Origin: a virus
Lineage: Duplodnaviria; Caudoviricetes
DNA length: 64,000 nucleotides
IMG/VR virus record: IMGVR_UViG_3300035502_000313
Location: 128,001 to 192,000 of that record
Direction: 5' to 3' (one strand)
A program made the position numbers and the translations under genes. This document shows positions 2,702-64,000 of the stretch, piece after piece. The notes beneath the pieces were generated by a model. It saw only the letters and a program-made list of their open reading frames with translations, was not told the DNA's origin and made no database searches. Each line of letters begins with the position of its first letter. Positions within the stretch are counted from its first letter, which is position 1.

Positions 2702-3001
2702 TTATATTATCTTTATTATTAGTTTATTATCATTATCTGGTATATAGGTTAAGACTCTATATGCCTTACCATAAATAACGACATTTTGTTCCGATGGTAG
2801 TGTATTAATTATATCAATGTCTTTAGAACTGAATCCTGTAATATCATACATTACACAAGTACCATCTGTACATGCATTTACTGTGTATGAAGAATCCTTT
2901 AATAGTGAGTATATAATCATATTTTGATTGATATATTTAATAACATAATCGACGAGGTTAATACCAGATATATTTTTTGTAAAACTTAGTATATCATCCA
3001 T
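2702..3001 (-). CDS. hypothetical protein
   Basis: 99 aa, AAGGAGG RBS, TAATG overlap with upstream small ORF. Confidence 0.7.
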   Translation of the reverse strand: MDDILSFTKNISGINLVDYVIKYINQNMIIYSLLKDSSYTVNACTDGTCVMYDITGFSSKDIDIINTLPSEQNVVIYGKAYRVLTYIPDNDNKLIIKII

Positions 3002-3240
3002 TACGGTATTAATCCTCCTTCTTCTAATGCGTCTTCCATTGCATCAGCCTGAACCTGTTCCTTACCTTCTTCAGATTGCATCTTTTCATATGCTATTGTG
3101 TACAAGATTTGAAACATAGCACAAGGCATTTCATATAACTCCATAAGAGATATTCTACCTTTATAATAGGTTGAAACTTGCTCTATACGTCTTATATCTT
3201 TTTCATAAGACCCAGCTGATGACGTGTAAAAAGCATATTG
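3001..3240 (-). CDS. gp51/gpT-like chaperone extension (-1 frame of upstream gene; or a 47-aa ORF from ATG 3144)
   Basis: -1 frame open from 3240 to stop at 3001: FYTSSAGSYEKDIRRIEQVSTYYKGRISLMELYEMPCAMFQILY... Confidence 0.6.
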   Translation of the reverse strand, partial: QYAFYTSSAGSYEKDIRRIEQVSTYYKGRISLMELYEMPCAMFQILYTIAYEKMQSEEGKEQVQADAMEDALEEGGLIP

Positions 3241-13858: not shown

Positions 13859-14398
13859 ATGATAACACAAGTTACTAAGTATATGTGTACTGTAGAGACA
13901 AAGAACTATCCTGTCACTACTATTAGACCAACAATCAATAGATACTCTTCTATTAGAAAGAAGTTTAGTGCTTCTGAAATTGCAAACTGTCTTGCATGCT
14001 ATGCTATAGTTACACTTCATAAGACAAGTGGTGCTAAGATAAGATTAACTGCTGACAATTTCAAGAGTGTTCTTCTTGCATATAAGAATGAACAGCTCGA
14101 ACAGCAGGAAAGAAACGAAATGCTTGCTCAGGTTAGAAAGAATTCTGAAGCTCTTAAACAGATTAAGGAAGAAGAATCTACAACTGAGACAACTACAGAA
14201 ACTACTACAACAAAGAAAGCTCCAGCCAAGAAGGTTGAAGAAACTGTTGTTGAGACTGAAGAAGTTGTAGAAGAAAAGGAAGATGAAGTAATCGTTCCTT
14301 CTGAGACTGAGTCACTAGAGGAAGTTCAGTCTGATCCTGAGAATCCTGAAACTGCTGACTGGTCTTATATCGACGGTGAAGAAGACGAAGCTGAATAA
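13859..14398 (+). CDS. hypothetical protein with acidic tail
   Basis: 179 aa, AAAGGAGG RBS, terminator at 14418-14464. Confidence 0.7.
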   Translation: MITQVTKYMCTVETKNYPVTTIRPTINRYSSIRKKFSASEIANCLACYAIVTLHKTSGAKIRLTADNFKSVLLAYKNEQLEQQERNEMLAQVRKNSEALKQIKEEESTTETTTETTTTKKAPAKKVEETVVETEEVVEEKEDEVIVPSETESLEEVQSDPENPETADWSYIDGEEDEAE

Positions 14399-14510
14399 AA
14401 AATAAACTAATTATACAAAAAAGAACAGCCAGAGTATCACAAGATACTCTGGTCATTCTTTTTAATTCACCTCTTTTCTTATTATATAGATTAGATTATT
14501 GCCACAATAA

Positions 14511-14549
14511 TCAATCGTATAGACCGCCTCCAAATCCATCTCCGAACAT
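14511..14549 (-). CDS. putative 12-aa peptide MFGDGFGGGLYD in a structured early transcript
   Basis: AAAGGAGGTG 6 nt before ATG; early promoter at 14616-14632. Confidence 0.35.
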   Translation of the reverse strand: MFGDGFGGGLYD

Positions 14550-14635
14550 ACTTAACACCTCCTTTCATTTTAGTATGTTCGATAATAGGCGGAAAGTAAT
14601 ATCTCCTCATATTACCACTATTATTATATATAACT

Positions 14636-34036: not shown

Positions 34037-34165
34037 AAAAAACGACAGACATACTCCACAGCCGCCGAAACTGTGGAGATGCTGTTCTTTTGTTCTTTTA
34101 ACAGAGGAAAACAATTCTTCGCAGAGGAAATCATGTCTCAACCAGAAGGCTGATTGCTCAACCTT
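34037..34165 (-). ncRNA. putative late small RNA with two anti-SD motifs
   Basis: AACA-N6-TA at 34165-34176; terminator CTCCACAG/CTGTGGAG plus U-tract; no ORF; divergent intergenic region. Confidence 0.5.
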
Positions 34166-34240
34166 ATCTAAATGTTGATAAATATTAGCGATTTATGTGA
34201 AAAACATTTCTATAATACAATCAAAAGGAGGAAATAAAAT

Positions 34241-44213: not shown

Positions 44214-44741
44214 TCATCTTTGTTGTTGCTCAAGTTGAGCAACTCTTGCCTTGAGCATTGCGTTTTCATTTGCAAGGTGATTAAAGCTTATAAACAAATT
44301 ATTATTGTTCATAGCATTAACATTGCTAACAAGATTGTTCACATAGGTTACTAGTTCATTTACATTATTAATCTGAACGCCATTAACGTTCCCATTAATA
44401 ATATCTGTTAGAATTTTCAAAGTATCAAGAGCATTAATTCCCTCAATGATTTTGTCACCAAGTTGAGTTTCATTCAGAAGTCCATACTTCTGAACAATCG
44501 CTGTCATAATCCCATTCATTCTAACATCTGAATCCATAACGATTGATTCGAAGTCTTTTTTGACTTTCTCTATGTCAGCCTTGACAATATTAGAATTTCC
44601 TGGATACTGACAGATATTCGGTACATTATTTAGTAAGTTCTTACACTCTTTATAGAGTTCAGAAACACTAAGACCGGAATCGATCAAATTACCCAATGTG
44701 TTAATAACACTTGCAAATTTTGCATATTTTTCATCTAACAT
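44214..44741 (-). CDS. hypothetical protein (early cassette)
   Basis: 175 aa, AAGGAG RBS, early-type promoter at about 44810-44825. Confidence 0.7.
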   Translation of the reverse strand: MLDEKYAKFASVINTLGNLIDSGLSVSELYKECKNLLNNVPNICQYPGNSNIVKADIEKVKKDFESIVMDSDVRMNGIMTAIVQKYGLLNETQLGDKIIEGINALDTLKILTDIINGNVNGVQINNVNELVTYVNNLVSNVNAMNNNNLFISFNHLANENAMLKARVAQLEQQQR

Positions 44742-52336: not shown

Positions 52337-52372
52337 CAAAAAAAGAAGTGGATGTAAAGTCCACTTCTTTTT
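52337..52372. terminator. bidirectional terminator
   Basis: AAAAGAAGTGGA-TGTAAAG-TCCACTTCTTTT. Confidence 0.85.
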
Positions 52373-52540
52373 CTTTATTATTTGAGGGTTTAAGGAGTGC
52401 CCTCAACTCCTTTATTTTCCCGAATTCTAACTCACTTATATTATATATATATCTAATTATTATGACTTTTACAAATACACAGTATAATCTTTCTACTTCA
52501 ACATACTTATAAACTAAGGTTTGAAAGGAGGAGTCTGTAT

Positions 52541-55500
52541 ATGTCTGTTCAAGTACAGAAGTATATAAAGAATTTAGGCAAGTCTATTACTTATTCTGCA
52601 GCCGATGTATTGAATAGCAAATTTGAATATATAAATGAAACTAAACAAGAGAATCAAGAAGTATTCAAAGAAGTATATCATTCTATAAAGGATTATAAAA
52701 ATACATTTGCTAGAGTAAAGAAAACTATTACTGATAATAAAGTAATGGATGCAGCCAGAGTAGGTTATAATTCTGTTTTATACAGTATTACAACTGGCGA
52801 TTTCTATGCTAAACAGAGAGAAGCAGAAGTCATGGAAAAATATGGAGGATCCTTCATGCAAGGATTTGACATGGATGACGATGACTTTGATTGGGACAAT
52901 GATGATTTATCTACAGGTGATAAGGTTGTTGCTACTGCTATTAAAAAGAATAGTAAGATAGGAACAGCTTTAACTGTAGAAGCTATATCTCAGACTGGTA
53001 AAGCACAGATGGATGTTTCTAGAGAAAACACTATGCTGTTATATACTCAGAATGAGCGTATGTTAAATAAATTAGATAATGGGTTTGGAAATATATTAGG
53101 TTTTCTAAAACAAAATGGAGAACAAACTGCAAAAGTTCAAAACCAGATGAATGAAAATCTTAATAAGTTTATGACAAATGTAGATAATAACATTACTAAA
53201 CTTACTAAACAAATGGATGAACTTCTCGAAATGCAGAGAAATATGTATAATCCTAAAAAAGAAGAAGAAAAACGTAAAGTCGGCTATGATGATATGATTA
53301 GTCGTAATGGTGTTTTAAATATTAAAGAGTATTCTAAGCATGTAAAAAAGAATGCTTTTAATACAATTAATGATATGTCTGGTGGAATGCTAAGTTATAT
53401 ATTTGGTGATTCTTTAGGACAAGGTTCTAACTTATTAGCACAATTTTCTGCTAATCCATTTAGAACAATATCAGAAACATTTATAAATAAAGCACTTGGT
53501 AAAAACTTTGATAGAGCTGCTAAAGAATTAAATACTACATTAGAAGGTATTGTACCATCTTTAATAGGCAAACTTAATGCTGCGTCTAAAAAAGATGATA
53601 GTGGTATTATGGGATTCTTAGGAAAAATCTTTGGTATTAAAGATGGCTCTAGAGAAAATATAGATACTAGTAGATACAATAAAGGTGCTATTCCTTTTGA
53701 TGGAATTACTAAGAGGGCTATAACAGATGTAATACCTTACTATTTAAGAAAGATGACTTCTGTCTTAACTGGTGAACAGGAAATGATATATGATTTCCAA
53801 ACTGGCAAATGGAGTAGTATGAAAGCTGTAAAAGCTGCTCATGATAATGCTGTAAATTCTGCTAAATATAGCACTGCTAATGCATTAACAGGAATTATAG
53901 AAAGTGGTTTAGGTGGTAGAAGATTAAGTGATTCGTATAAGAATAAATATGATTATGACAAAATAGTAAAAGCTATTGAATCTTTAGCAGGAAAATTACA
54001 AAATGCAGGAGACTTCGGAAGCGTTGATGAATCTCTCGATATATACGAAAGAGATGTAATGAAAATGCTAAGAGAAGCTATGCGTCTTGATGATGGAAGT
54101 GGAAATGATAGAAGATTTACTAGAAATTCAAAAGGTAAAAGAATTTCTTCTGGAATACAGAGAAGTGCTATCGGTGGATTCAATAATATGCTAAGACAAA
54201 ATAGATTATCTCAAAATAATACTATAAAAAGTATAAATAATGGAGATTCTATATTACGAATCATAGAATCAGAAGGTCTTGCATCTCAAAGTACTGAAAA
54301 TTATCAAGCAAAAAGTTTTGTTAATAGTCATGGTGATTTTGATCAAAATAAAATTCAACAAATGCCTGTTACACAAGCTTTAATTCGTGGTAGAGATGAA
54401 TATGGAGTTACTCTATATCAATATCTTAGAGACATGGATCTTAGTTTACGTTATATTAAAGCTAATTCTACTTATCTTGGAAGTCTTAATAGTAATGAAA
54501 ATGGTGAATCTAATAAGAATAATGAAGAGATAGTTAAGCATATTCTTAAAGATGGAGACATTGATTTTACTAAAGATAAAGAATCTCAATACATTGAAAA
54601 ATATTTTGAGAATATGCAAAATAAAAATAGACGTAAAGAAGAAGATGATTGGGATAAAAGAATTTCAGAAGCTAGAAAAAGAGCTGCAGCTAAGGGAGAA
54701 ATATATACATTAGCTACATCAACTGATTTTGAAAGTTCAAATGGTGATACAGGAATAGCTAATATAATGCGTAATAGTAGTTCTAAAACTGCTGCTAAAG
54801 CTAAAATAGCATATACTAGAGAACAACAGAAACAAGAAGAAGAAAGATGGAAGGCTATTGCTGGTATAATCGGCCAAGAGGAAGCGAATAAAGCTAGAGC
54901 TAACTTAGATCAATATGACTCTGATAAGAGTATAAAAGATAATATGGAAAAAGTTAAAGATAAAGGCTTTACTGCTAGTCTTATGATGTTTGCTAAATCT
55001 CTTGGCAATAAAATACGTAATCCTGGCGATGCAGCTGCCGATACTATTGTTAAAGTAGATTATTGGTTACAGAAACTCATATATGGTGAAGATTTAAAAG
55101 ATTCCGAAAATGGTAGAAAATCTTTATTTGAAAATATGAAAGATCAATTCCAAAAGGGTATACAAGGAATTAGAGAATCTATAGATAAAGGTTTTGAAAA
55201 ATTAAAAGAAAAAGTTAGTCCATTATTTAAACCACTCAAAGAATTAGGTAAAAAAATATTTGGTACAAAAGATGAAAATGGTTTTTATCAAGGTGGTATG
55301 ATAGGATCATTTATCGGAGGTGTTCAAAAAGGTTTTCGTAGAAATTCTTCGGATTTTTCAGGCTATATTAAAAATCAATATTCAGACTTTAAAAATAGAT
55401 TTACTCAAGATAGACCTGAACCTGAATTATCGTCTAAACAAAAATATGATGCTAGACGTTCAGAGATAATGAATAAATTAAATCGAGAAGCAGAAAGTGA

Positions 55501-58500
55501 AAACCAAATTATTAGTGGTAATGCATTAGAAAAGATTGCTAATATATCAGCATATAGAGTTAAACAGTCTTCTGTAAATAATGAAAAAATAGATGGAGAT
55601 GTTAAAAGAGCTGCTAGAAAGCAAGCTATGATAGATGAATTAACTAGAAAGATAGAGAATCAAGAAGCTTCAGTTATTTCTAGTGAAAAGTCAATTGCTT
55701 CGTTAAAACAACAATTACAAACTAAATTATATAATAATGAAGATCCTGGGGATTTAGAAAAAAAATTAGAAAGTCAAGAAAAGGTTTTAGAAAAGACAAA
55801 GGCTAATTTGAAAAATAATAAACAAAAGTTAGCCAAAATAGTAAATAGCACTACAAAAAATAAATACATGGCTGTTGGCGGTGTTAATAAAACAGGAAAG
55901 CCATTTAGATCTGTATTATCTGCAGGTGAGTTACATAACGGAAATATAGTTCCTAAAATGGGTATATATCAAATTAATCCTGGTGATACTGTTATAAATC
56001 CTGCTGGTGCTGCTACAAGAGCTAAACAAGCTAATGCCGAAAGAAAGTATCTTGCTAATATAAGAAGAAATGCAGAAGCTAATGACAAATTAACTCCAAC
56101 CGATGATACTAAAACTAAGGACAAAGATTCTGATGAACAGAATAAAAAGAAGATTCAGCAACTTCTTACTGATACAGACTGGAATAGTTTATCTACTAAA
56201 GAACAAAAGAAAGAATATATCGGTAATGTTGTTTCTAAAGGTTTAATTGGTGGCGGATTAGGTTTACTTGTAGGTGGACCTTTAATAGGTGCATCTATCG
56301 GTGCTGCTTCTGCTTTAACTAAATCTACTGGTTCATTTGCTAGTTTCTTATTTGGTGAAGCTGTTACCGATAAAGATGGTAATATACAAGTTGATGATAA
56401 AGGTAATGTTAAAAGAGCTGATAATGGTCTTATTAGTCAGGAAATAATGAAGGCTGTGCCAGATATTAAGAAGTATGGTCTTGGTGGTGCAATTGCTGGT
56501 CTATTAACTCCTATCGGTCCTTTAGGCGGTGTTCTTGTTGGCTCTGCATTAGGATTTGCAAAGAATTCTGAAATATTCCAAGGCTCTTTATTTGGTGAAG
56601 GTGGAATATTCTCTGAAGAGAATAAAGCTAAATTTAAAAAAGGTGCTAAAAGCATGGGAATCGGTGCTGCTATTGGTGCGTTTACTGGTGGTCCATTTGG
56701 TTTAGTAGGTAATGCATTATTAGGTGCTACTGCAGGCTATGTTACATCAACTGACAAATTCAAAGACTTTGTTCTTGGTGAAAAAGATGATCCAAATAAT
56801 CCTGAAAGTAAGAGACATGGTGGTGTCATGGGTGTTCTTAAGAGTGCTGTTGAACCACTAAAAGATTTTGGTAAAACACTTACTAACGGTATATTAGATG
56901 CTGTGTTTGGTAAGAAAAATGGTGAAAATGGCAAACGTGAAGGTGGATTATTTGGACTTGTAAGAAAAACTATAATAGATCCTTTAGCAGACGGCACAAA
57001 GACCATGGTAAATGCATTAAATGAAAAAGTAAGAGACATCGGATTTATGGCTAAAAAGACTTGGAAGAAAATTCAAAGAAAAATGGCTGGTAATGATGGA
57101 GCAGGAGTATTTGGTGAATTTGGTCAAAAAATTGCTAAGGGTGCCACTAAAATAGCCAAAGGTGCAATTATGGCTCCACTACTTCCTTTAATGGGAGGAG
57201 TAAAATTAGCACAAAAAGGTATTTTTAATCCAATTAAGAGAAAATCAATTAGAACTGGTAAAGCAAGTCATATGACTGCTAGAGAAAGATTAAAAGCAAG
57301 AGGCGAGCTTGGTATGGCTGAATATGATGACTATACTCTTTTTGATAACTCTCTTACTGAAATGGACAATGATTCTATTCAGTCATTAAAAGATAGACTT
57401 TCGGTTTATGTAGATGGCGATGATGCAGCGTTTAAAGAACAGAATAATCTTTTTGACAGTACAGGAAGAGAACTGAGAGATTATATATCATCAAAAAATG
57501 CAAATAAAATTATGAAAAGTCTTAAAAAAAATGACTATAGAGAAGCTGAAAGATTAATTAGAACTGGTAATTTTAAAATAGAGGGTGGTGAAGCTAATAG
57601 AGGTAAACTTGAAGCAATAATTAAAAAGCATAAAAGAAAATATTCTACAATCGATGAAAGAATGGCTAAAGCTAACAGTGCAAGCAAATTATCAAGTAAA
57701 GTTCTTAAAGATGAATATGGCCTTGATGTTGATTTAAACGATCCAAGAGATGTTGATAAGGTTAAGAGAATGCTTGATAGAGAACTGATTCATAACGAAG
57801 CTGGATTAACTGAAGAGGATATGGAATTTGATAGAATGAGAGAATTCTGGTCAGATGATAAATCTCCTCTTAAGACAGTTAATAGTGGTGTAGAAGCTGT
57901 AGTTAAAACTTTAGATAATATTTATAATGAAGTAAAACTAGGTAATGAATATGACAAGTTATCTGATGAAGAAAAATCTAAATATGAATCTAGAGAAGAT
58001 TATATTCAAAAGAATAAAGCTACTGCTGAACCAGATGCTACTCAAGATAAACTCAATGGTAAAAAATCTGATTCTACTAATAAACATAGAAAATTTTCTA
58101 GGGTTAAAATGGTACAAGAAAATCCAGATAAATTCTCAAAAACTATAAAGAGAATTATTGAAGAAGCATTGAAATTATTTGACGGAAAAGTAATGGAAGA
58201 AATTAGTGACCCAAATAAAATTAAAATAGATATCGATAAATGGAAATTAGAGAATCCAGATAAAGACTATAATAATGAAAAGCTTATTAGAACTAATATT
58301 ATTATTGATAGTCTTGACCAAAAGTATGAGTTTGACTGTGCTTATGTATGTAAGCAAAGTGGTAATAATTTCTCAGTTGAAATTGCTAAAAATCAATCAG
58401 AGAGTTTCGAAACATGTAGAGAAGATTTTGCTAATGCATATCTAGATGCACGTATGCCTAAAAGTGCTAAAGGTAAAGGCAGTTATATGAGTTTTAAAGA

Positions 58501-61500
58501 CATGGTTAAAAAGACTATAAAGATATCAGGATTCTTTGTAGCTGCTAGTATTGTTCCTGGTGGAGCTCTTGTTTTAGGAGCAAAACTTGCTTTTATGAAA
58601 ATAGCTAAAAAACGTGGATGGGATAAAAAACTCAAAAATGGTATTAGACGTGTTAAAAACGATGTAAAACATGTTCTTGGTTCTCATGCGATTGATTCAA
58701 GTTCAAAAAGACAACAAAGAAAAGAAAAAAACTATAATGCAAAAGCTGAAAAAGTACTTCAGAAAATGATAGAAAAAGGTGATGCTCAGCTAGATACTAT
58801 AGCACAAGAAAAATATAAAAAGAACTATTCTGAGTTAACTGATGATGAAAAATCAGCGGTAAATGCTACATTCAAAGAAAGATATGTAAATAATAAAATT
58901 GCTAATCAAGTTACCGGTCATGGTTTATTAGGAAATATTAAAGCTGCTCCTAAAGCTCTCATGGGAACTTTAAAATCTGGTATAAAAAATCTAACTGCTG
59001 GTAAAATTGATAAAGTCAAAGAGAAAATACAAAAACAAAAAGAAGAAGATAGATTTATAGGAAAATTATTTAATAAACTAGATAAATGGAAACTAGGAAG
59101 AGATGAGAAAAACTTTAAAGGTAAAAAGGATAGTAGACTTGCTAAAATACTGAAATGGCTATTTATAGGCGGTATTGCTGTTCCTATACTAGTAGGATTT
59201 GTTAAAGATAAAATCATGCCTGCTGTTCATGATAAGATTCAACCATGGCTAAAGAAAGCTGCACAAAAGCTTATTGGTACTAAGAATGAACAAACTGGTG
59301 AATATGAAGGTGGAATAATAGCTGGTATCGTAAATCCTGTTAGAAACTTCTTTAAAGACAAATTCCAAACTATTAGTGATTGGTTCCATAATAAAGGAAA
59401 GTTTACTAGTCCCGATACTGGTTTCAAAGGATTAATAGGAAACTTTAAATCTGCAATCAATTACGGTATAACACTATGGAAAGATGGTACATCTACAATT
59501 CTAAATGATTGCTTGCCTAAAGTAGTTGAAGGAATAGTAGCTAATTTACCAACTATACTTGGTGCTATAGGAACTGGTTTAATAAATGGTATAAAGGATA
59601 TCTTTTTTGGTAAAAAAGATGGTACTGGAGAACAATCATTAGAAACTGTAAATGCTTCTCAGATGGTTGATTCTACTTCTTCTAGTAGCGATAATGATTC
59701 ATCTTCTTCAAGTACTGGAATTAAATTTAATAATACAGTTGGTGGAACATGGGTTGAAACAGTAGGTGGATCGTCAACTAAAGTAGGAAGTTATGTAGAT
59801 GTAGTTTCATTAAATAGTGACATATATCAACCTACTTCAAGAAAAACTAATGATGATGGATCGACAACTTTAACAAATGAAAATACTGGAGAATCTGTTA
59901 CATCTGAATTTATTGATGATGATTCGATGGTATCTGCTGGTACAAACAAAGCTGGAGATAAAATATATTATAAGAGAACAGATGTTAACAGAACTCAACC
60001 GTATACAAAGGCTAATGACGGTGAATATGTTAGAATGGATAAGCAATCCAGTGTTATGCTTAGCAGTCTTCAAGACAATCAAAGCTATGCTGATATGGTT
60101 GCTGATAACGATGCTGGAGACGCTGGTGTAACTGATTCTTATACAGGAACAAACCCAGCTTTAGAAAAGACAGCATATGCTGGAAAAGTATTAACTAAAG
60201 CAGCAACTAGTAAATCAGGTGCTAAAGGTCTTTCTATGGCAATTAAAGCTGGAGGAAAAGGTGTTAAAATAGCTGGTAAAATGATTAATCTTATTCCAGG
60301 CACAAATGTTGCTGGATGGGCTACAAAGAAATCATTAGGAAAAGTTGGAGATAAAATAGTTGATTCTGCAGATGATGTATCATATAAATACTATAATTTC
60401 ATGCAATCTAAAATATCCAAAGCAGTAGAAAATAGTAAAGTTCTAAGCAAGGTTAATAATGCAGGAATTAAGATTAAAAATGCTCCTAAAAATATAGCTG
60501 AGAAAGCTAAAAATGCTATAAAAAATAAAATGGGAAAAACTGCAGAGAATGCTACTAAAAATGCAGCCGAGAATGCCGCAGAAAAAGCCGCTAAAGAAAC
60601 TGCTGAAAAAACAGCTAAAGAAGCTGCAGAGAATGTTACTAAAAATGCAGCTGAAAGTGTTATGGAAAGTTCTACTAAAAATGCAGCTAAAACAGGAGGA
60701 ACCTCATTTTTAGCTAAATCCGTTAAAGAATTATTTGAAAAAGCCAAAAGTAAAATAATTGAATGGTTTGCAAAGCTATTTAAAGGTAGTGCTGTAAAAG
60801 AAGCTGCAAAAAATGCTGGACGTGAAATAACAGAAGAAACTGCAGAAAAATTAGCTAAAGAAACTGGTGAAAAATTAGTTAAAGAATGTGCTGAACAGGG
60901 TGCTGAAAAAATAGCTACAGTAGCTGGTAAAAACCTCGTATCATCAGCATGTGATTGTTCTGGTATAGGAGTAGTAATTAATATAGCATTTGCTATAGCA
61001 GACTTCTTACTAGGTATGGATGATGCTAGAAATATATTACAAATTACTGGAGATGATATTCCATTATCTTATAGATTCTTCGCAGGTCTTGCTAATACAA
61101 TGCAAGATATTCCAATTGTCGGAATATTATTAGGTTGTATTGGAGCTAAGAACATTGTTTATTATCTAGTAGAATGGTTTGGAGATATTCTCTTCCCTGA
61201 AGCTACTGAAGAATTAAAGAAGAGACAAGAAGAAGCACAACAAACTCTTGAACAATATAATGCACAAAATAATACTAATTTAACACTAGAGCAGTATAAT
61301 AATAAAAAGTACGCTACTGTATCAAGTACAGTAAGTGGATGGTTCTCAGATGCTGGTTCATTCTTATCAGGAAAAGATGCTACAGTATCAGAAGCTATGG
61401 AAACAAGACGAAATGTAGCAGATTCTAATGATACTGTAACTGACATAAGAGAAAAACTTGAAAGTATAGCTTCTCATATGTGGGAAAAACAAGGTGATAA

Positions 61501-64000
61501 ATTTAAAGATTTTAACCTTAGTAAAGATACATATGGAAAGTTATGTGCTGAAGTTATTGATAAGATAGTATTATTACTAAATGGATTAGATGATGATTCA
61601 TTAAGTAAAGTTTTAACTAGTGCTGGAAAAATAGAAACAGGATTTTGGGCAAATGCTGGTTACACTACTCTAAAATATCTTACTTTTGGTGCTTATGATG
61701 GTGACCCATTTGTTGATGCATGGGATGACGGTTATAAAGGTCTTTCATATCTTGGTCTTGATAAAAAAGATGGATGGGAAAATACAAGTGTTGTAAAATG
61801 TATCGGTGGTATAGCTTCAGTATTTGTTAAGGCATGTGGTGGAGCTAACTTAAAATGGAAAATTATTGACATCGTAATTTCTGTATTTGGTAATGGTATG
61901 GCTGGAGATTCTATAGATGAAAATTCTAAGAAACTTGTAGAAAATAGCAATTCCAAAATATCAAATATTAATGATGCGTATGATTCAAATTTACACGGAA
62001 ATTCTGGTACAACATCTGTAAGTCTGTCATCGTCCGATTCGTCATCAACATCTACAGCAGAAGATGTAGTTGCAAATGCAAATGCTAATAGTAAATTATC
62101 AGCTATATCTGGATTGTACAACACAGCTAAATCAAACATGATTAACACTGCAGGTTTTATAGATGATAAGATAAGCAGTAGTCTATTTGGCGAAGTATAT
62201 AATAATGCTAAATCAACTGCATCTGGATTGTATAACACAGCTAAATCAAACTTAAAATCTACAGCATCAGGTTTATATAATACTGCTAAATCAAACATGA
62301 TTAACACTGCAGGTTTTATAGATGATAAATTAAGTAATAGTCCATTTGGTGGAATATACAATTATGATAAATCTGCTGCATCAGGATTATGGAACTTCTT
62401 TAAAGGAATATTTACTAATGCAGAAGCTAATAGTAACTTATCTCCTATAAATATGACATCAAACAATAAAGATAAAAATAGTGGTTCGTCAATAGGTAGA
62501 TTTCTAATGCTTATTCCTAATACTATTAATAATGCTATAACAAATATGACTGGTGATTTAAGTAAAATAGAAGATATGTTCTCTGGTCTAGTTAAAAAGA
62601 ATAAGAGTATAAATGATTCTATTGATTCTTTATCATTACTTCCTACAGATAAAAAATATTGGGATATCGAAGTAGATAATGATAACCCATTTGTAAGTGG
62701 ACTGTTTAAATTTGTTGAATCTATGAACAGAGTTGTTAAGGCACCATTCTCTTTGGCAGTTTCGTCATTAGGAAAGGGATTGTCTGCTGTTTCGTCTTCA
62801 TCATCAAACAGTAGTAGTTCTTCTTCATCTTCGTCATCAAGTGGATCAACAAATAGTAGTGATAGTTCTTCTAGTAGCAGTTCTAGTAGTAGTGGTGGTA
62901 TTTTATCTAAAATTGCTACTGGTGCTAAATCAATATTTAAAAAGGTTTCATCTGGTATAAAGAGCTTTTTTGGTTTTGGTAAAGGTAAAGATGATTATGA
63001 TGATACTGGTTATGGTGATGATCCTTTCCATATTTATCAAAGAGATTATAAAGGCTCATATAGAACTACTGGAGATTCAGAAAGTCAAACTATAGCAGAT
63101 TCAGGTTGTGGACCAGCTGCAGCAGCATCATTGTTAAGAATGTATGGCAAGAAGGGTGATATGCATAATGCTGTTAATTATGCTTTAAGTAATAAATATA
63201 AAGAAGTAGATGGTGGTACATATCCTCAATACTTTAATGATTACTTAAATAAGAACGGTATTAGTACAAACTCTAATGCAGATAATAATGATGTAGTAAA
63301 TAGTCTTATTCACAATAAGCCTGTTATCTTAATGGGACGTGATTCAAGTAATAGTGGTACAACGCCTTATGGATCTAAGTATTCTCACTATGTAGTAGCT
63401 AGAGGACTGGATTCAAATGGTAATGTTATAGTAGAAGATTCTGAAGATAAGAACGGTAGTACTAGATATAGTCTAGCAGATACTCTAAGAAATTCATCAG
63501 TAAGAATAACAACCGGTAATGGTAAATATGGTAGAGGTGCTACATCATCTATGGCTGAAAACTTTACCACAGGCGTTAGCTATACTGTAACATCAGCAGT
63601 TTCTAATATAGTATCTAATGCAGCAAATTCTGTGGCTGGACTATTAGGAAGTAGCTCTACATCATCTAGTACATCTAATGATGCATCTGCAAGCACTAAT
63701 GGCGTAGAAGGAAGTATTACTGCTGATACTGATGTTAAGACAAAATGTGGTTATACTGCTGATCAATTAAAAGCTGCTATTACATCAATTCATTCAGGAT
63801 GCAGTGCAGAACAATTCCCTGAACTTGCTATACAAGTTGAAAATTCTAAGGGTGTCAATGCATTATTTACAATAGCTGTAGCTATTAGTGAACATGGATG
63901 GGATGGTACAATTGGTGTTAATACTACCGGTGCAAACTGGGGTAACTATAACCCATTCAATATATCCGGTTCTCCTAACTCATCAAATGGAAGATGGAAA
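52541..64000 (+). CDS. giant tape-measure/tail-associated lysin (>=3820 codons, runs off the window), not in ORF track
   Basis: ATG after GAAAGGAGGAG and late promoter; frame still matches at the window end (...ISGSPNSSNGRWK); Gly-zipper TM segments at about 56220-56740; C39-like SGCGP...HYVVA at about 63030-63510; glucosaminidase-like GVNALFTIAVAISEHGW...NPFNI from about 63750. Confidence 0.85.
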   Translation, partial: MSVQVQKYIKNLGKSITYSAADVLNSKFEYINETKQENQEVFKEVYHSIKDYKNTFARVKKTITDNKVMDAARVGYNSVLYSITTGDFYAKQREAEVMEKYGGSFMQGFDMDDDDFDWDNDDLSTGDKVVATAIKKNSKIGTALTVEAISQTGKAQMDVSRENTMLLYTQNERMLNKLDNGFGNILGFLKQNGEQTAKVQNQMNENLNKFMTNVDNNITKLTKQMDELLEMQRNMYNPKKEEEKRKVGYDDMISRNGVLNIKEYSKHVKKNAFNTINDMSGGMLSYIFGDSLGQGSNLLAQFSANPFRTISETFINKALGKNFDRAAKELNTTLEGIVPSLIGKLNAASKKDDSGIMGFLGKIFGIKDGSRENIDTSRYNKGAIPFDGITKRAITDVIPYYLRKMTSVLTGEQEMIYDFQTGKWSSMKAVKAAHDNAVNSAKYSTANALTGIIESGLGGRRLSDSYKNKYDYDKIVKAIESLAGKLQNAGDFGSVDESLDIYERDVMKMLREAMRLDDGSGNDRRFTRNSKGKRISSGIQRSAIGGFNNMLRQNRLSQNNTIKSINNGDSILRIIESEGLASQSTENYQAKSFVNSHGDFDQNKIQQMPVTQALIRGRDEYGVTLYQYLRDMDLSLRYIKANSTYLGSLNSNENGESNKNNEEIVKHILKDGDIDFTKDKESQYIEKYFENMQNKNRRKEEDDWDKRISEARKRAAAKGEIYTLATSTDFESSNGDTGIANIMRNSSSKTAAKAKIAYTREQQKQEEERWKAIAGIIGQEEANKARANLDQYDSDKSIKDNMEKVKDKGFTASLMMFAKSLGNKIRNPGDAAADTIVKVDYWLQKLIYGEDLKDSENGRKSLFENMKDQFQKGIQGIRESIDKGFEKLKEKVSPLFKPLKELGKKIFGTKDENGFYQGGMIGSFIGGVQKGFRRNSSDFSGYIKNQYSDFKNRFTQDRPEPELSSKQKYDARRSEIMNKLNREAESENQIISGNALEKIANISAYRVKQSSVNNEKIDGDVKRAARKQAMIDELTRKIENQEASVISSEKSIASLKQQLQTKLYNNEDPGDLEKKLESQEKVLEKTKANLKNNKQKLAKIVNSTTKNKYMAVGGVNKTGKPFRSVLSAGELHNGNIVPKMGIYQINPGDTVINPAGAATRAKQANAERKYLANIRRNAEANDKLTPTDDTKTKDKDSDEQNKKKIQQLLTDTDWNSLSTKEQKKEYIGNVVSKGLIGGGLGLLVGGPLIGASIGAASALTKSTGSFASFLFGEAVTDKDGNIQVDDKGNVKRADNGLISQEIMKAVPDIKKYGLGGAIAGLLTPIGPLGGVLVGSALGFAKNSEIFQGSLFGEGGIFSEENKAKFKKGAKSMGIGAAIGAFTGGPFGLVGNALLGATAGYVTSTDKFKDFVLGEKDDPNNPESKRHGGVMGVLKSAVEPLKDFGKTLTNGILDAVFGKKNGENGKREGGLFGLVRKTIIDPLADGTKTMVNALNEKVRDIGFMAKKTWKKIQRKMAGNDGAGVFGEFGQKIAKGATKIAKGAIMAPLLPLMGGVKLAQKGIFNPIKRKSIRTGKASHMTARERLKARGELGMAEYDDYTLFDNSLTEMDNDSIQSLKDRLSVYVDGDDAAFKEQNNLFDSTGRELRDYISSKNANKIMKSLKKNDYREAERLIRTGNFKIEGGEANRGKLEAIIKKHKRKYSTIDERMAKANSASKLSSKVLKDEYGLDVDLNDPRDVDKVKRMLDRELIHNEAGLTEEDMEFDRMREFWSDDKSPLKTVNSGVEAVVKTLDNIYNEVKLGNEYDKLSDEEKSKYESREDYIQKNKATAEPDATQDKLNGKKSDSTNKHRKFSRVKMVQENPDKFSKTIKRIIEEALKLFDGKVMEEISDPNKIKIDIDKWKLENPDKDYNNEKLIRTNIIIDSLDQKYEFDCAYVCKQSGNNFSVEIAKNQSESFETCREDFANAYLDARMPKSAKGKGSYMSFKDMVKKTIKISGFFVAASIVPGGALVLGAKLAFMKIAKKRGWDKKLKNGIRRVKNDVKHVLGSHAIDSSSKRQQRKEKNYNAKAEKVLQKMIEKGDAQLDTIAQEKYKKNYSELTDDEKSAVNATFKERYVNNKIANQVTGHGLLGNIKAAPKALMGTLKSGIKNLTAGKIDKVKEKIQKQKEEDRFIGKLFNKLDKWKLGRDEKNFKGKKDSRLAKILKWLFIGGIAVPILVGFVKDKIMPAVHDKIQPWLKKAAQKLIGTKNEQTGEYEGGIIAGIVNPVRNFFKDKFQTISDWFHNKGKFTSPDTGFKGLIGNFKSAINYGITLWKDGTSTILNDCLPKVVEGIVANLPTILGAIGTGLINGIKDIFFGKKDGTGEQSLETVNASQMVDSTSSSSDNDSSSSSTGIKFNNTVGGTWVETVGGSSTKVGSYVDVVSLNSDIYQPTSRKTNDDGSTTLTNENTGESVTSEFIDDDSMVSAGTNKAGDKIYYKRTDVNRTQPYTKANDGEYVRMDKQSSVMLSSLQDNQSYADMVADNDAGDAGVTDSYTGTNPALEKTAYAGKVLTKAATSKSGAKGLSMAIKAGGKGVKIAGKMINLIPGTNVAGWATKKSLGKVGDKIVDSADDVSYKYYNFMQSKISKAVENSKVLSKVNNAGIKIKNAPKNIAEKAKNAIKNKMGKTAENATKNAAENAAEKAAKETAEKTAKEAAENVTKNAAESVMESSTKNAAKTGGTSFLAKSVKELFEKAKSKIIEWFAKLFKGSAVKEAAKNAGREITEETAEKLAKETGEKLVKECAEQGAEKIATVAGKNLVSSACDCSGIGVVINIAFAIADFLLGMDDARNILQITGDDIPLSYRFFAGLANTMQDIPIVGILLGCIGAKNIVYYLVEWFGDILFPEATEELKKRQEEAQQTLEQYNAQNNTNLTLEQYNNKKYATVSSTVSGWFSDAGSFLSGKDATVSEAMETRRNVADSNDTVTDIREKLESIASHMWEKQGDKFKDFNLSKDTYGKLCAEVIDKIVLLLNGLDDDSLSKVLTSAGKIETGFWANAGYTTLKYLTFGAYDGDPFVDAWDDGYKGLSYLGLDKKDGWENTSVVKCIGGIASVFVKACGGANLKWKIIDIVISVFGNGMAGDSIDENSKKLVENSNSKISNINDAYDSNLHGNSGTTSVSLSSSDSSSTSTAEDVVANANANSKLSAISGLYNTAKSNMINTAGFIDDKISSSLFGEVYNNAKSTASGLYNTAKSNLKSTASGLYNTAKSNMINTAGFIDDKLSNSPFGGIYNYDKSAASGLWNFFKGIFTNAEANSNLSPINMTSNNKDKNSGSSIGRFLMLIPNTINNAITNMTGDLSKIEDMFSGLVKKNKSINDSIDSLSLLPTDKKYWDIEVDNDNPFVSGLFKFVESMNRVVKAPFSLAVSSLGKGLSAVSSSSSNSSSSSSSSSSSGSTNSSDSSSSSSSSSSGGILSKIATGAKSIFKKVSSGIKSFFGFGKGKDDYDDTGYGDDPFHIYQRDYKGSYRTTGDSESQTIADSGCGPAAAASLLRMYGKKGDMHNAVNYALSNKYKEVDGGTYPQYFNDYLNKNGISTNSNADNNDVVNSLIHNKPVILMGRDSSNSGTTPYGSKYSHYVVARGLDSNGNVIVEDSEDKNGSTRYSLADTLRNSSVRITTGNGKYGRGATSSMAENFTTGVSYTVTSAVSNIVSNAANSVAGLLGSSSTSSSTSNDASASTNGVEGSITADTDVKTKCGYTADQLKAAITSIHSGCSAEQFPELAIQVENSKGVNALFTIAVAISEHGWDGTIGVNTTGANWGNYNPFNISGSPNSSNGRWK
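62126..62328 (+). repeat. 44-nt direct repeat (period 159 nt) within tape measure gene
   Basis: GCTAAATCAAACATGATTAACACTGCAGGTTTTATAGATGATAA at 62126 and 62285, plus SGLYNTAKS peptide repeats. Confidence 0.85.

Follow-up and report, generated by a model that had tools for sequence, protein, structure and literature searches.

Small RNAs that also encode a peptide, and genes of very small size, include RNAIII with delta-haemolysin, SR1 with SR1P, mccA of microcin C7, and Stp of phage T4. The last of these provides an example of a phage peptide made early that acts on a host system. Hairpins over start sites occur in the MS2 replicase operator and in the early transcript of T4 lysozyme, where they are opened by a known protein or avoided by an alternative transcript start. 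The STAB-SD of cry3A was reportedly introduced by Agaisse and Lereclus in 1996 as a 5′ stabilizer of that mRNA. Its Shine-Dalgarno (SD)-like sequence binds the 30S subunit and does not direct initiation (PMC4113751). In the PeSL cassettes of T4-type phages, stem-loops are terminators located ahead of sigma-70-like promoters (Arbiol et al. 2010, PMC2839356). For the virion RNA polymerase of phage AR9, the early promoter consensus is AAATATATATTAT-(6N)-G+1 (Lavysh et al. 2017, PMC5312081); that paper makes no mention of stand-alone units of 10–12 codons, of start-clamping hairpins, or of non-coding or small RNAs.

The unit analyzed here resembles peptide-coding small RNAs and start-site hairpins, and to judge from its sequence it is a member of no named family. 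Searches of the literature brought up no relevant work on comparable phage micropeptides, and a conserved gene of 10–16 codons clamped at both ends by covarying hairpins was found described neither in the literature searched nor in Rfam. Rfam returned only sub-threshold chance matches, namely eukaryotic miRNA models over the terminator.

Locus and predicted early promoter

The whole stretch of DNA that was analyzed (64,000 nt, hereafter the window) comprises bases 128001-192000 of a 212,182-bp IMG/VR record with direct terminal repeats; the phage has a G+C content of about 31%. The unit lies on the minus strand and extends from the stop codon of a 599-aa gene (14638-14636) to a bidirectional terminator, at which a convergent plus-strand gene (13859-14398) also ends. 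The product of the 599-aa gene (16435-14636, minus strand) matched phrog_2986 ("RNA polymerase beta subunit", jumbo phage; E = 1.7e-85) and is about 30% identical to the beta-prime pieces of the AR9/PBS1 group (Listeria LPJP1, Bacillus BpSp and Goe21, Staphylococcus S6). The phage thus has split multisubunit RNA polymerase genes, as is expected of the bearer of an AR9-type unit. Nucleotide searches of the GenBank phage collection for near and distant sequences gave no match to the locus. From this result and the polymerase identity to the AR9 group, we take the source to be an uncultured, distant AR9-like jumbo phage.

Upstream of the polymerase gene, an intrinsic terminator (~16520-16487, minus strand) splits it from an early 91-aa gene, and an AR9-like late motif, AACA-N6-TA, precedes it at 16476-16465. 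Because it has its own upstream terminator and this motif, the beta-prime-like gene is probably a late gene, and the arrangement suggests that it encodes a late (virion polymerase) subunit. Judging from the motifs, early in infection the unit itself would be transcribed from its own promoter, and late in infection through read-through from the polymerase gene. Its features, in window positions, are the following.

14617-14633, minus strand: AR9-type early (virion RNA polymerase) promoter motif, TTATATATAAT followed by 6 nt
14616, minus strand: predicted transcription start G+1, by analogy with the 6-nt spacing in AR9
14595-14616, minus strand: H1, 5′-terminal hairpin starting at +1, from folds
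14524-14592, minus strand: H2, with an inner 10-bp stem (14581-14572/14552-14543) and an outer stem (14592-14587/14529-14524), from folds and covariation
14556-14565, minus strand: SD AAAGGAGGUG, unpaired in the H2 loop
14511-14549, minus strand: micro-ORF of 12 codons plus stop (MFGDGFGGGLYD)
14491-14610, minus strand: 39-aa ORF, judged spurious
14485-14521, minus strand: H3, whose 5′ arm consists of the last codons and the stop codon
14417-14453, minus strand: bidirectional intrinsic terminator (14453-14428 plus U tracts), common to the convergent plus-strand gene and with an equivalent in every relative

An earlier note, made from the letters of this DNA, had placed an early promoter here, and this was borne out: the motif matches the AR9 early consensus and recurs over the genome. 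At 14633-14616, TTATATATAAT is followed by 6 nt and a G, in agreement with the AR9 core ...TATATATTAT-(6N)-G+1; this promoter differs from that core by one A/T, and exact matches to the core occur among other genomic copies. The unit shares with AR9/PBS1 early units an AT-rich promoter core, the 6-nt spacing to G, and an intrinsic terminator at its end, but the AR9 units described drive ordinary genes (PMC5312081). The strict motif occurs 12 times in the 212-kb genome, and exact copies in the window number five, all on the minus strand. Predicted early starts include window positions 2616, 11608, 14616, 16869, and 52433 (minus strand) as well as seven more genomic sites; the promoter sites examined lie close ahead of either a gene or a short unit lacking an ORF. 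The promoter is kept in the relatives, in all of which it lies directly 3′ of the polymerase stop codon, and we infer early timing of the unit from it.

Nine of the 12 predicted early transcripts have a hairpin beginning at the +1 G or at most one base from it, with arm sequences that differ by site. Because such a hairpin follows nine of the 12 early promoters, H1 appears to be a general feature of the predicted early transcripts of this phage and not special to the micro-ORF unit. Nearly all relatives also have a hairpin at or near +1, and these hairpins are unrelated to each other in sequence. The +1 hairpin may be a general 5′ protection device of the phage.

Coding signature and hairpins of the unit

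Relatives were collected by a search with the polymerase protein, which gave nine viral and 15 metagenomic loci; one further locus (L033) came from a pattern scan. Gut- or rumen-type metagenomes are the origin of the relatives. With identical copies removed, the unit was present at the same site in 16 distinct sequences with polymerase identities of 75–88%. All 16 contain an open frame of 10–16 codons beginning M(F)GDG[F/L]xG. First and second positions of the GDGF codons are invariant across the relatives, except for one Phe-to-Leu change, while all four third positions vary, those of Asp and Phe solely by synonymous exchange of one pyrimidine for the other. By chance, four variable positions among 12 would coincide with the third positions with a probability of 1/495, and the pattern is that of purifying selection at the amino acid level. 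The encoded peptide is acidic and glycine-rich (4–6 Gly), with a conserved N-terminal core and a tail that varies in sequence and length. In a six-frame search, the GDGF motif was found once in the whole genome. An overlapping ORF in the +1 frame is present only where the Asp codon is GAT and is not conserved.

The spacing of the putative ribosome-binding site (RBS) is that of a translated small ORF, the 10-nt SD lying 8 nt ahead of the AUG at 14549. In all 11 sequences of type A (as opposed to the five of type B described below), the distance from SD to start codon is 7–9 nt and the GAAAGGAGG core is invariant. Together, these features suggest that the micro-ORF is actually translated. One relative (L023), which counts against the proposed picture, has a UUG start and only a weak H2. 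No homologue, domain, or target of the peptide was found; it is shorter than the length limits of protein-homology, structure, and atlas tools.

The secondary structure outlined in the earlier note, consisting of a 5′ hairpin, a CCGCCU/AGGCGG outer stem, and a 10-bp inner stem, is present in full at 14616-14524 (minus strand), as are the perfect SD in the loop (14565-14556) and the AUG (14549) in the 3′ arm of the H2 inner stem. CCGCCU (14592-14587) pairs with AGGCGG (14529-14524). Nine to ten of the 11 type A sequences keep the inner stem, in which the loop carries the SD and the start codon is part of the 3′ arm; the SD was unpaired in the folds of the window and of most relatives. When the pairs are anchored on the AUG, their changes are compensatory: position −2 appears as C-G, U-A, or A-U, position −1 as A-U or U-A, and positions +4 to +6 as A-U, G-U, C-G, G-C, and U-A pairs. 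Where the peptide is of the MF type, its additional Phe codon, UUC, has a counterpart in a GAA inserted into the 5′ arm. Covariation extends to the outer stem, which reads CCGCC/GGCGG in the window and CCACC/GGUGG in L024. With shuffling confined to the part 5′ of the SD, p was 0.002–0.25 per sequence, with a combined p = 6e-7, or 2.6e-4 when only four independent stem versions were counted.

Folding at the start of the micro-ORF is also unusual for this phage. The start region has a folding energy of −16.0 kcal/mol and P(AUG unpaired) = 0.0006, compared with medians of −6.2 kcal/mol and 0.49 over the 168 SD-bearing ORFs of the phage. Only two of the 168 genes are folded as tightly at the start, and the start is less accessible in only one.

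H3 and the bidirectional terminator were absent from the earlier description. In 16 of 16 sequences, two to four codons at the end of the ORF, in some cases together with the stop codon, make up the 5′ arm of H3. Its arm sequences are entirely different between relatives (Fisher-combined shuffle p = 4e-11 over 12 lineages). In the folds, structure takes up almost the entire RNA: a stretch of 216 nt reached a minimum free energy of −57.4 kcal/mol, whereas shuffles averaged −40.2 (z = −4.3) and none of 200 did as well. As is usual with hairpins, the plus strand gives an equally good fold; the strand call therefore rests on promoter, RBS, and ORF.

Consensus folding of 13 whole transcripts (MAFFT/RNAalifold) yielded no paired positions, as the hairpins have no sequence in common and the alignment was out of register; MAFFT on the H2 region alone was out of register owing to the extra Phe codon. 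For this reason, hairpin conservation was assessed on per-sequence folds anchored on start and stop codons, with shuffle controls, which is weaker than an unbiased structural alignment. We discounted a second SD-like tract with an ATG at 14456, from which an antisense ORF of 83 aa opens, since it lacks conservation and its purines are the complement of the plus-strand terminator U tract.

Type B relatives and distribution

Five relatives (L004, L005, L006, L020, and L022), designated type B, lack the AUG-sequestering stem. Because they do so, the H2 hairpin itself is dispensable and sequestration is not universal in these sequences. Their strong SD serves an upstream ORF of 10–14 codons, the UGA of which overlaps the AUG of the GDGF ORF; the latter retains a weaker SD of its own. 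The overlap suggests translational coupling and possibly a second micropeptide. The upstream ORF (e.g. L004:4858-4890) ends in ...VG(E/D)THG. Both designs would let ribosomes reach the GDGF ORF only indirectly, by melting of a stem in type A and by coupling in type B, which is consistent with controlled translation. The proposal of a riboregulated micropeptide was largely right, and the earlier reading as a whole, checked by conservation in homologues as the note had suggested, held in part: the H2 stem covaries and the codons of the 12-aa ORF are conserved, but the stem is absent in the five type B relatives and the 39-aa ORF is not conserved.

Beyond this group, two lineages with 47% polymerase identity have an ordinary gene at the site instead. 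L028 (50% polymerase identity) carries an early-type promoter, hairpins, GAAAGGAG, a GUG start, and a terminator at 2862-3100. Its ORF of 16 codons encodes an unrelated acidic peptide, and its Asp/Glu codons form a hairpin arm. Possibly, as L028 indicates, the site may accept different micro-gene cassettes. No GDGF micro-ORF is present near the homologous polymerase gene of Listeria LPJP1, Bacillus BpSp and Goe21, or Staphylococcus S6. An exact 26-nt search of IMG/VR gave no match, and degenerate codon-pattern scans of IMG/VR found the micro-ORF confined to this clade. One pattern match (L035) was discarded as a chance hit inside the gene of a glycine-rich protein.

Proposed mechanism, alternatives, and further predicted early units

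Based on the anatomy, conservation, covariation, coding signature, and unusual start-site folding established by computation, we consider it rather probable that this is an early micro-gene standing on its own in the genome of an AR9-like jumbo phage, i.e. a folded mini-mRNA that gates a trans-acting peptide. The injected virion RNA polymerase would start at about 14616 and stop at the terminator, giving a mini-mRNA of ~200 nt (155–250 nt in relatives). This RNA would be almost wholly folded, with H1 capping the 5′ end, H2 displaying the SD and pairing the AUG, and H3 pairing the last codons and stop. A 30S subunit would dock on the exposed SD, and the AU-rich stem over the AUG would have to melt before initiation; the terminating ribosome would unwind H3. 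Folding would both shield the short RNA from nucleases and gate or slow translation, a role in which H2 and H3 would act as gates. The product would be an acidic, Gly-rich peptide of 10–16 residues with an N-terminal G-D-G-F-x-G core and a variable tail, whose most probable mode of action is in trans, on a target of the host or the phage in the early phase of infection. Against such a function counts that the peptide is very small for a specific role in trans (10–12 aa, about five fixed residues).

Similar to the dual-function RNAs, the unit is a short structured RNA with its own promoter and terminator and a small, presumably translated ORF. It has no sequence relation to them, however, and the GDGF peptide is shorter than all of their products but MccA. 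From MccA it differs in having no C-terminal Asn, and no partner enzyme genes were present among the flanking genes examined. As in the start-site hairpins of MS2 and T4, the start codon is paired locally and initiation would require opening of the stem, but the RBS is left exposed in the phage unit. With PeSL the unit shares an early promoter tied to a stem-loop and small variable ORFs, and the micro-ORF of L028 suggests cassette-like exchange; unlike in PeSL, the hairpin comes after the start site without serving as a terminator, and the promoter is one for a phage-type polymerase.

Several other readings of the same features have to be considered. The unit could act in cis, either because ribosome loading on the SD and short ORF stabilizes the RNA or remodels its hairpins, as in STAB-SD or a dual-function RNA, or because the nascent GDGF peptide stalls the ribosome; we regard this as unlikely, although it has more in its favor than the remaining alternatives. 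Like the STAB-SD of cry3A, which acts by 30S binding (PMC4113751), the GAAAGGAGG core is a perfect SD. Located near the 5′ end of a Firmicute-type transcript, it could hold a 30S subunit and block 5′-to-3′ decay. Moreover, nearly the entire RNA is structured, and a ribosome on the micro-ORF would open H2 and H3. A STAB-SD is by definition non-initiating, however, whereas here a conserved start codon at the optimal 7–9 nt in all type A sequences opens a conserved ORF, which sets the unit apart from STAB-SD elements. Furthermore, selection acts on the residues of GDGF themselves, and ribosome occupancy alone would not call for this. In known arrest peptides, conservation lies by the C-terminus or the position of stalling, whereas here it lies at codons 2–5, at the N-terminus, ahead of a variable tail; such a pattern is easier to reconcile with a peptide acting in trans than with stalling at one fixed position. 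Finally, only the terminator and the convergent gene lie downstream, leaving nothing to regulate. By analogy, ribosome loading in cis is plausible as an added role. Regulation of read-through was also considered, with the unit as a leader-peptide attenuator in which a ribosome on the Gly-rich ORF chooses between H3 and the terminator and so controls transcription antisense to the convergent gene. The arrangement, in which a short ORF with one abundant residue (4–6 Gly) precedes a hairpin and then a terminator, is as expected, but we think this reading very improbable. Folds of the relatives contained no conserved alternative antiterminator pairing, no relative has a same-strand gene downstream (the convergent gene follows the terminator), and the A-rich tract ahead of the terminator is the complement of the plus-strand U tract. 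The Gly codons, moreover, switch freely among GGA, GGU, and GGC, so that no single tRNA would be sensed. Equally small is the chance that the hairpins are a stabilizer or processing structure in the 3′UTR of the upstream polymerase mRNA reading through late. There is no terminator between the polymerase stop codon and the unit, and late read-through would be expected from the AR9-like late promoter on the polymerase gene; this account nevertheless leaves the conserved early promoter, the SD spacing, and the coding signature unexplained, and would at most describe an additional role.

Other alternatives dispense with the GDGF peptide. The RNA might be a non-coding early sRNA with an incidental ORF, serving as a decoy for 30S or CsrA or as a partner of the late anti-Shine-Dalgarno sRNA of the phage. 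In favor of this, the ~200-nt RNA is structured, has a promoter and a terminator to itself, and exposes an SD in a loop; the genome has other early units without an ORF (e.g. at window 52433), and a putative late RNA with CCUC motifs (34037-34176) could be its partner. We nonetheless see little likelihood in it, given the codon-position pattern and the frame, length, and spacing kept in 16 relatives. Complementarity to UUCCUCUG of the late RNA, judged by eye, is ~4–5 bp and generic to any SD. The CsrA decoy proposed in the earlier note finds no support, since several conserved GGA motifs in loops would be the mark of CsrA/RsmA binding and only the GGA of the SD is kept; the GGAs of the H1 loop and of the ORF, located in non-conserved loops or at wobble positions, change among relatives. 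A ribosome decoy alone, also put forward there, is unlikely in view of the evident selection at the peptide level. Least credible of all is a type-I-toxin-like mRNA for the cationic 39-aa ORF with a hydrophobic tail (14610-14491). This ORF exists in the window, its composition is like that of small membrane toxins, and the mRNA is highly folded, but it has no equivalent in any relative, no SD, and an AUG at +7 inside H1, so that the suggestion of a gene here was dropped. Type I toxins are conserved hydrophobic or membrane peptides of ~20–60 aa with an RBS hidden by folding and an antisense RNA; the conserved peptide here is acidic, Gly-rich, and of 10–16 aa, and its SD is unpaired and exposed. 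A scan of the plus strand with the promoter consensus yielded nothing that stood out, only one weak 9/12 match (14552-14579).

We therefore return to the gated micro-gene with a trans-acting product as the preferred reading. A bolder version, which we put forward tentatively and think more doubtful than not, is that the GDGFxG peptide is a new host-takeover or anti-defence effector, among the smallest conserved independently transcribed genes, and belongs to a wider undescribed class of early "hairpin-clamped" micro-genes of AR9-like gut and rumen jumbo phages in which the fold times or limits translation. For example, a ribosome might catch the site during transcription, before the stem closes. 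The host-takeover or anti-defence role in particular would be a guess. ORFs as short as these are ignored by gene callers, which makes phage micropeptides almost invisible; this one is backed by three independent comparative signals, namely (i) codon-level selection, (ii) covarying hairpins, and (iii) a conserved promoter-terminator frame. If made immediately on infection, the peptide would be a candidate minimal effector against a host process or defence, and the clamped mRNA would be a compact natural design that links RNA stability to gated translation. The unit may point to a neglected layer of early gene content in jumbo phages.

We also noted further predicted early units. A second stand-alone unit at window 52338-52447 (minus strand) has an exact promoter motif, a start at 52433, and a predicted transcript of ~95 nt. 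It contains an SD-like AAAGGAG paired within a hairpin and a strong terminator adjoining the end of a 698-aa plus-strand gene. No SD-linked ORF was found in it, and it is a candidate early non-coding RNA. Early promoters at genome positions 44617, 90994, and 110304 (plus strand) have a common 5′ leader with a nested hairpin starting GAGUAAGAGAUA. Two of these three leaders precede ordinary genes after 170–185 nt; the unit at 44617 extends for ~230 nt to a terminator-like hairpin, and no SD-linked ORF was found in it. Finally, an ORF of more than 3,820 codons on the plus strand (window 52541-64000) runs past the window end.
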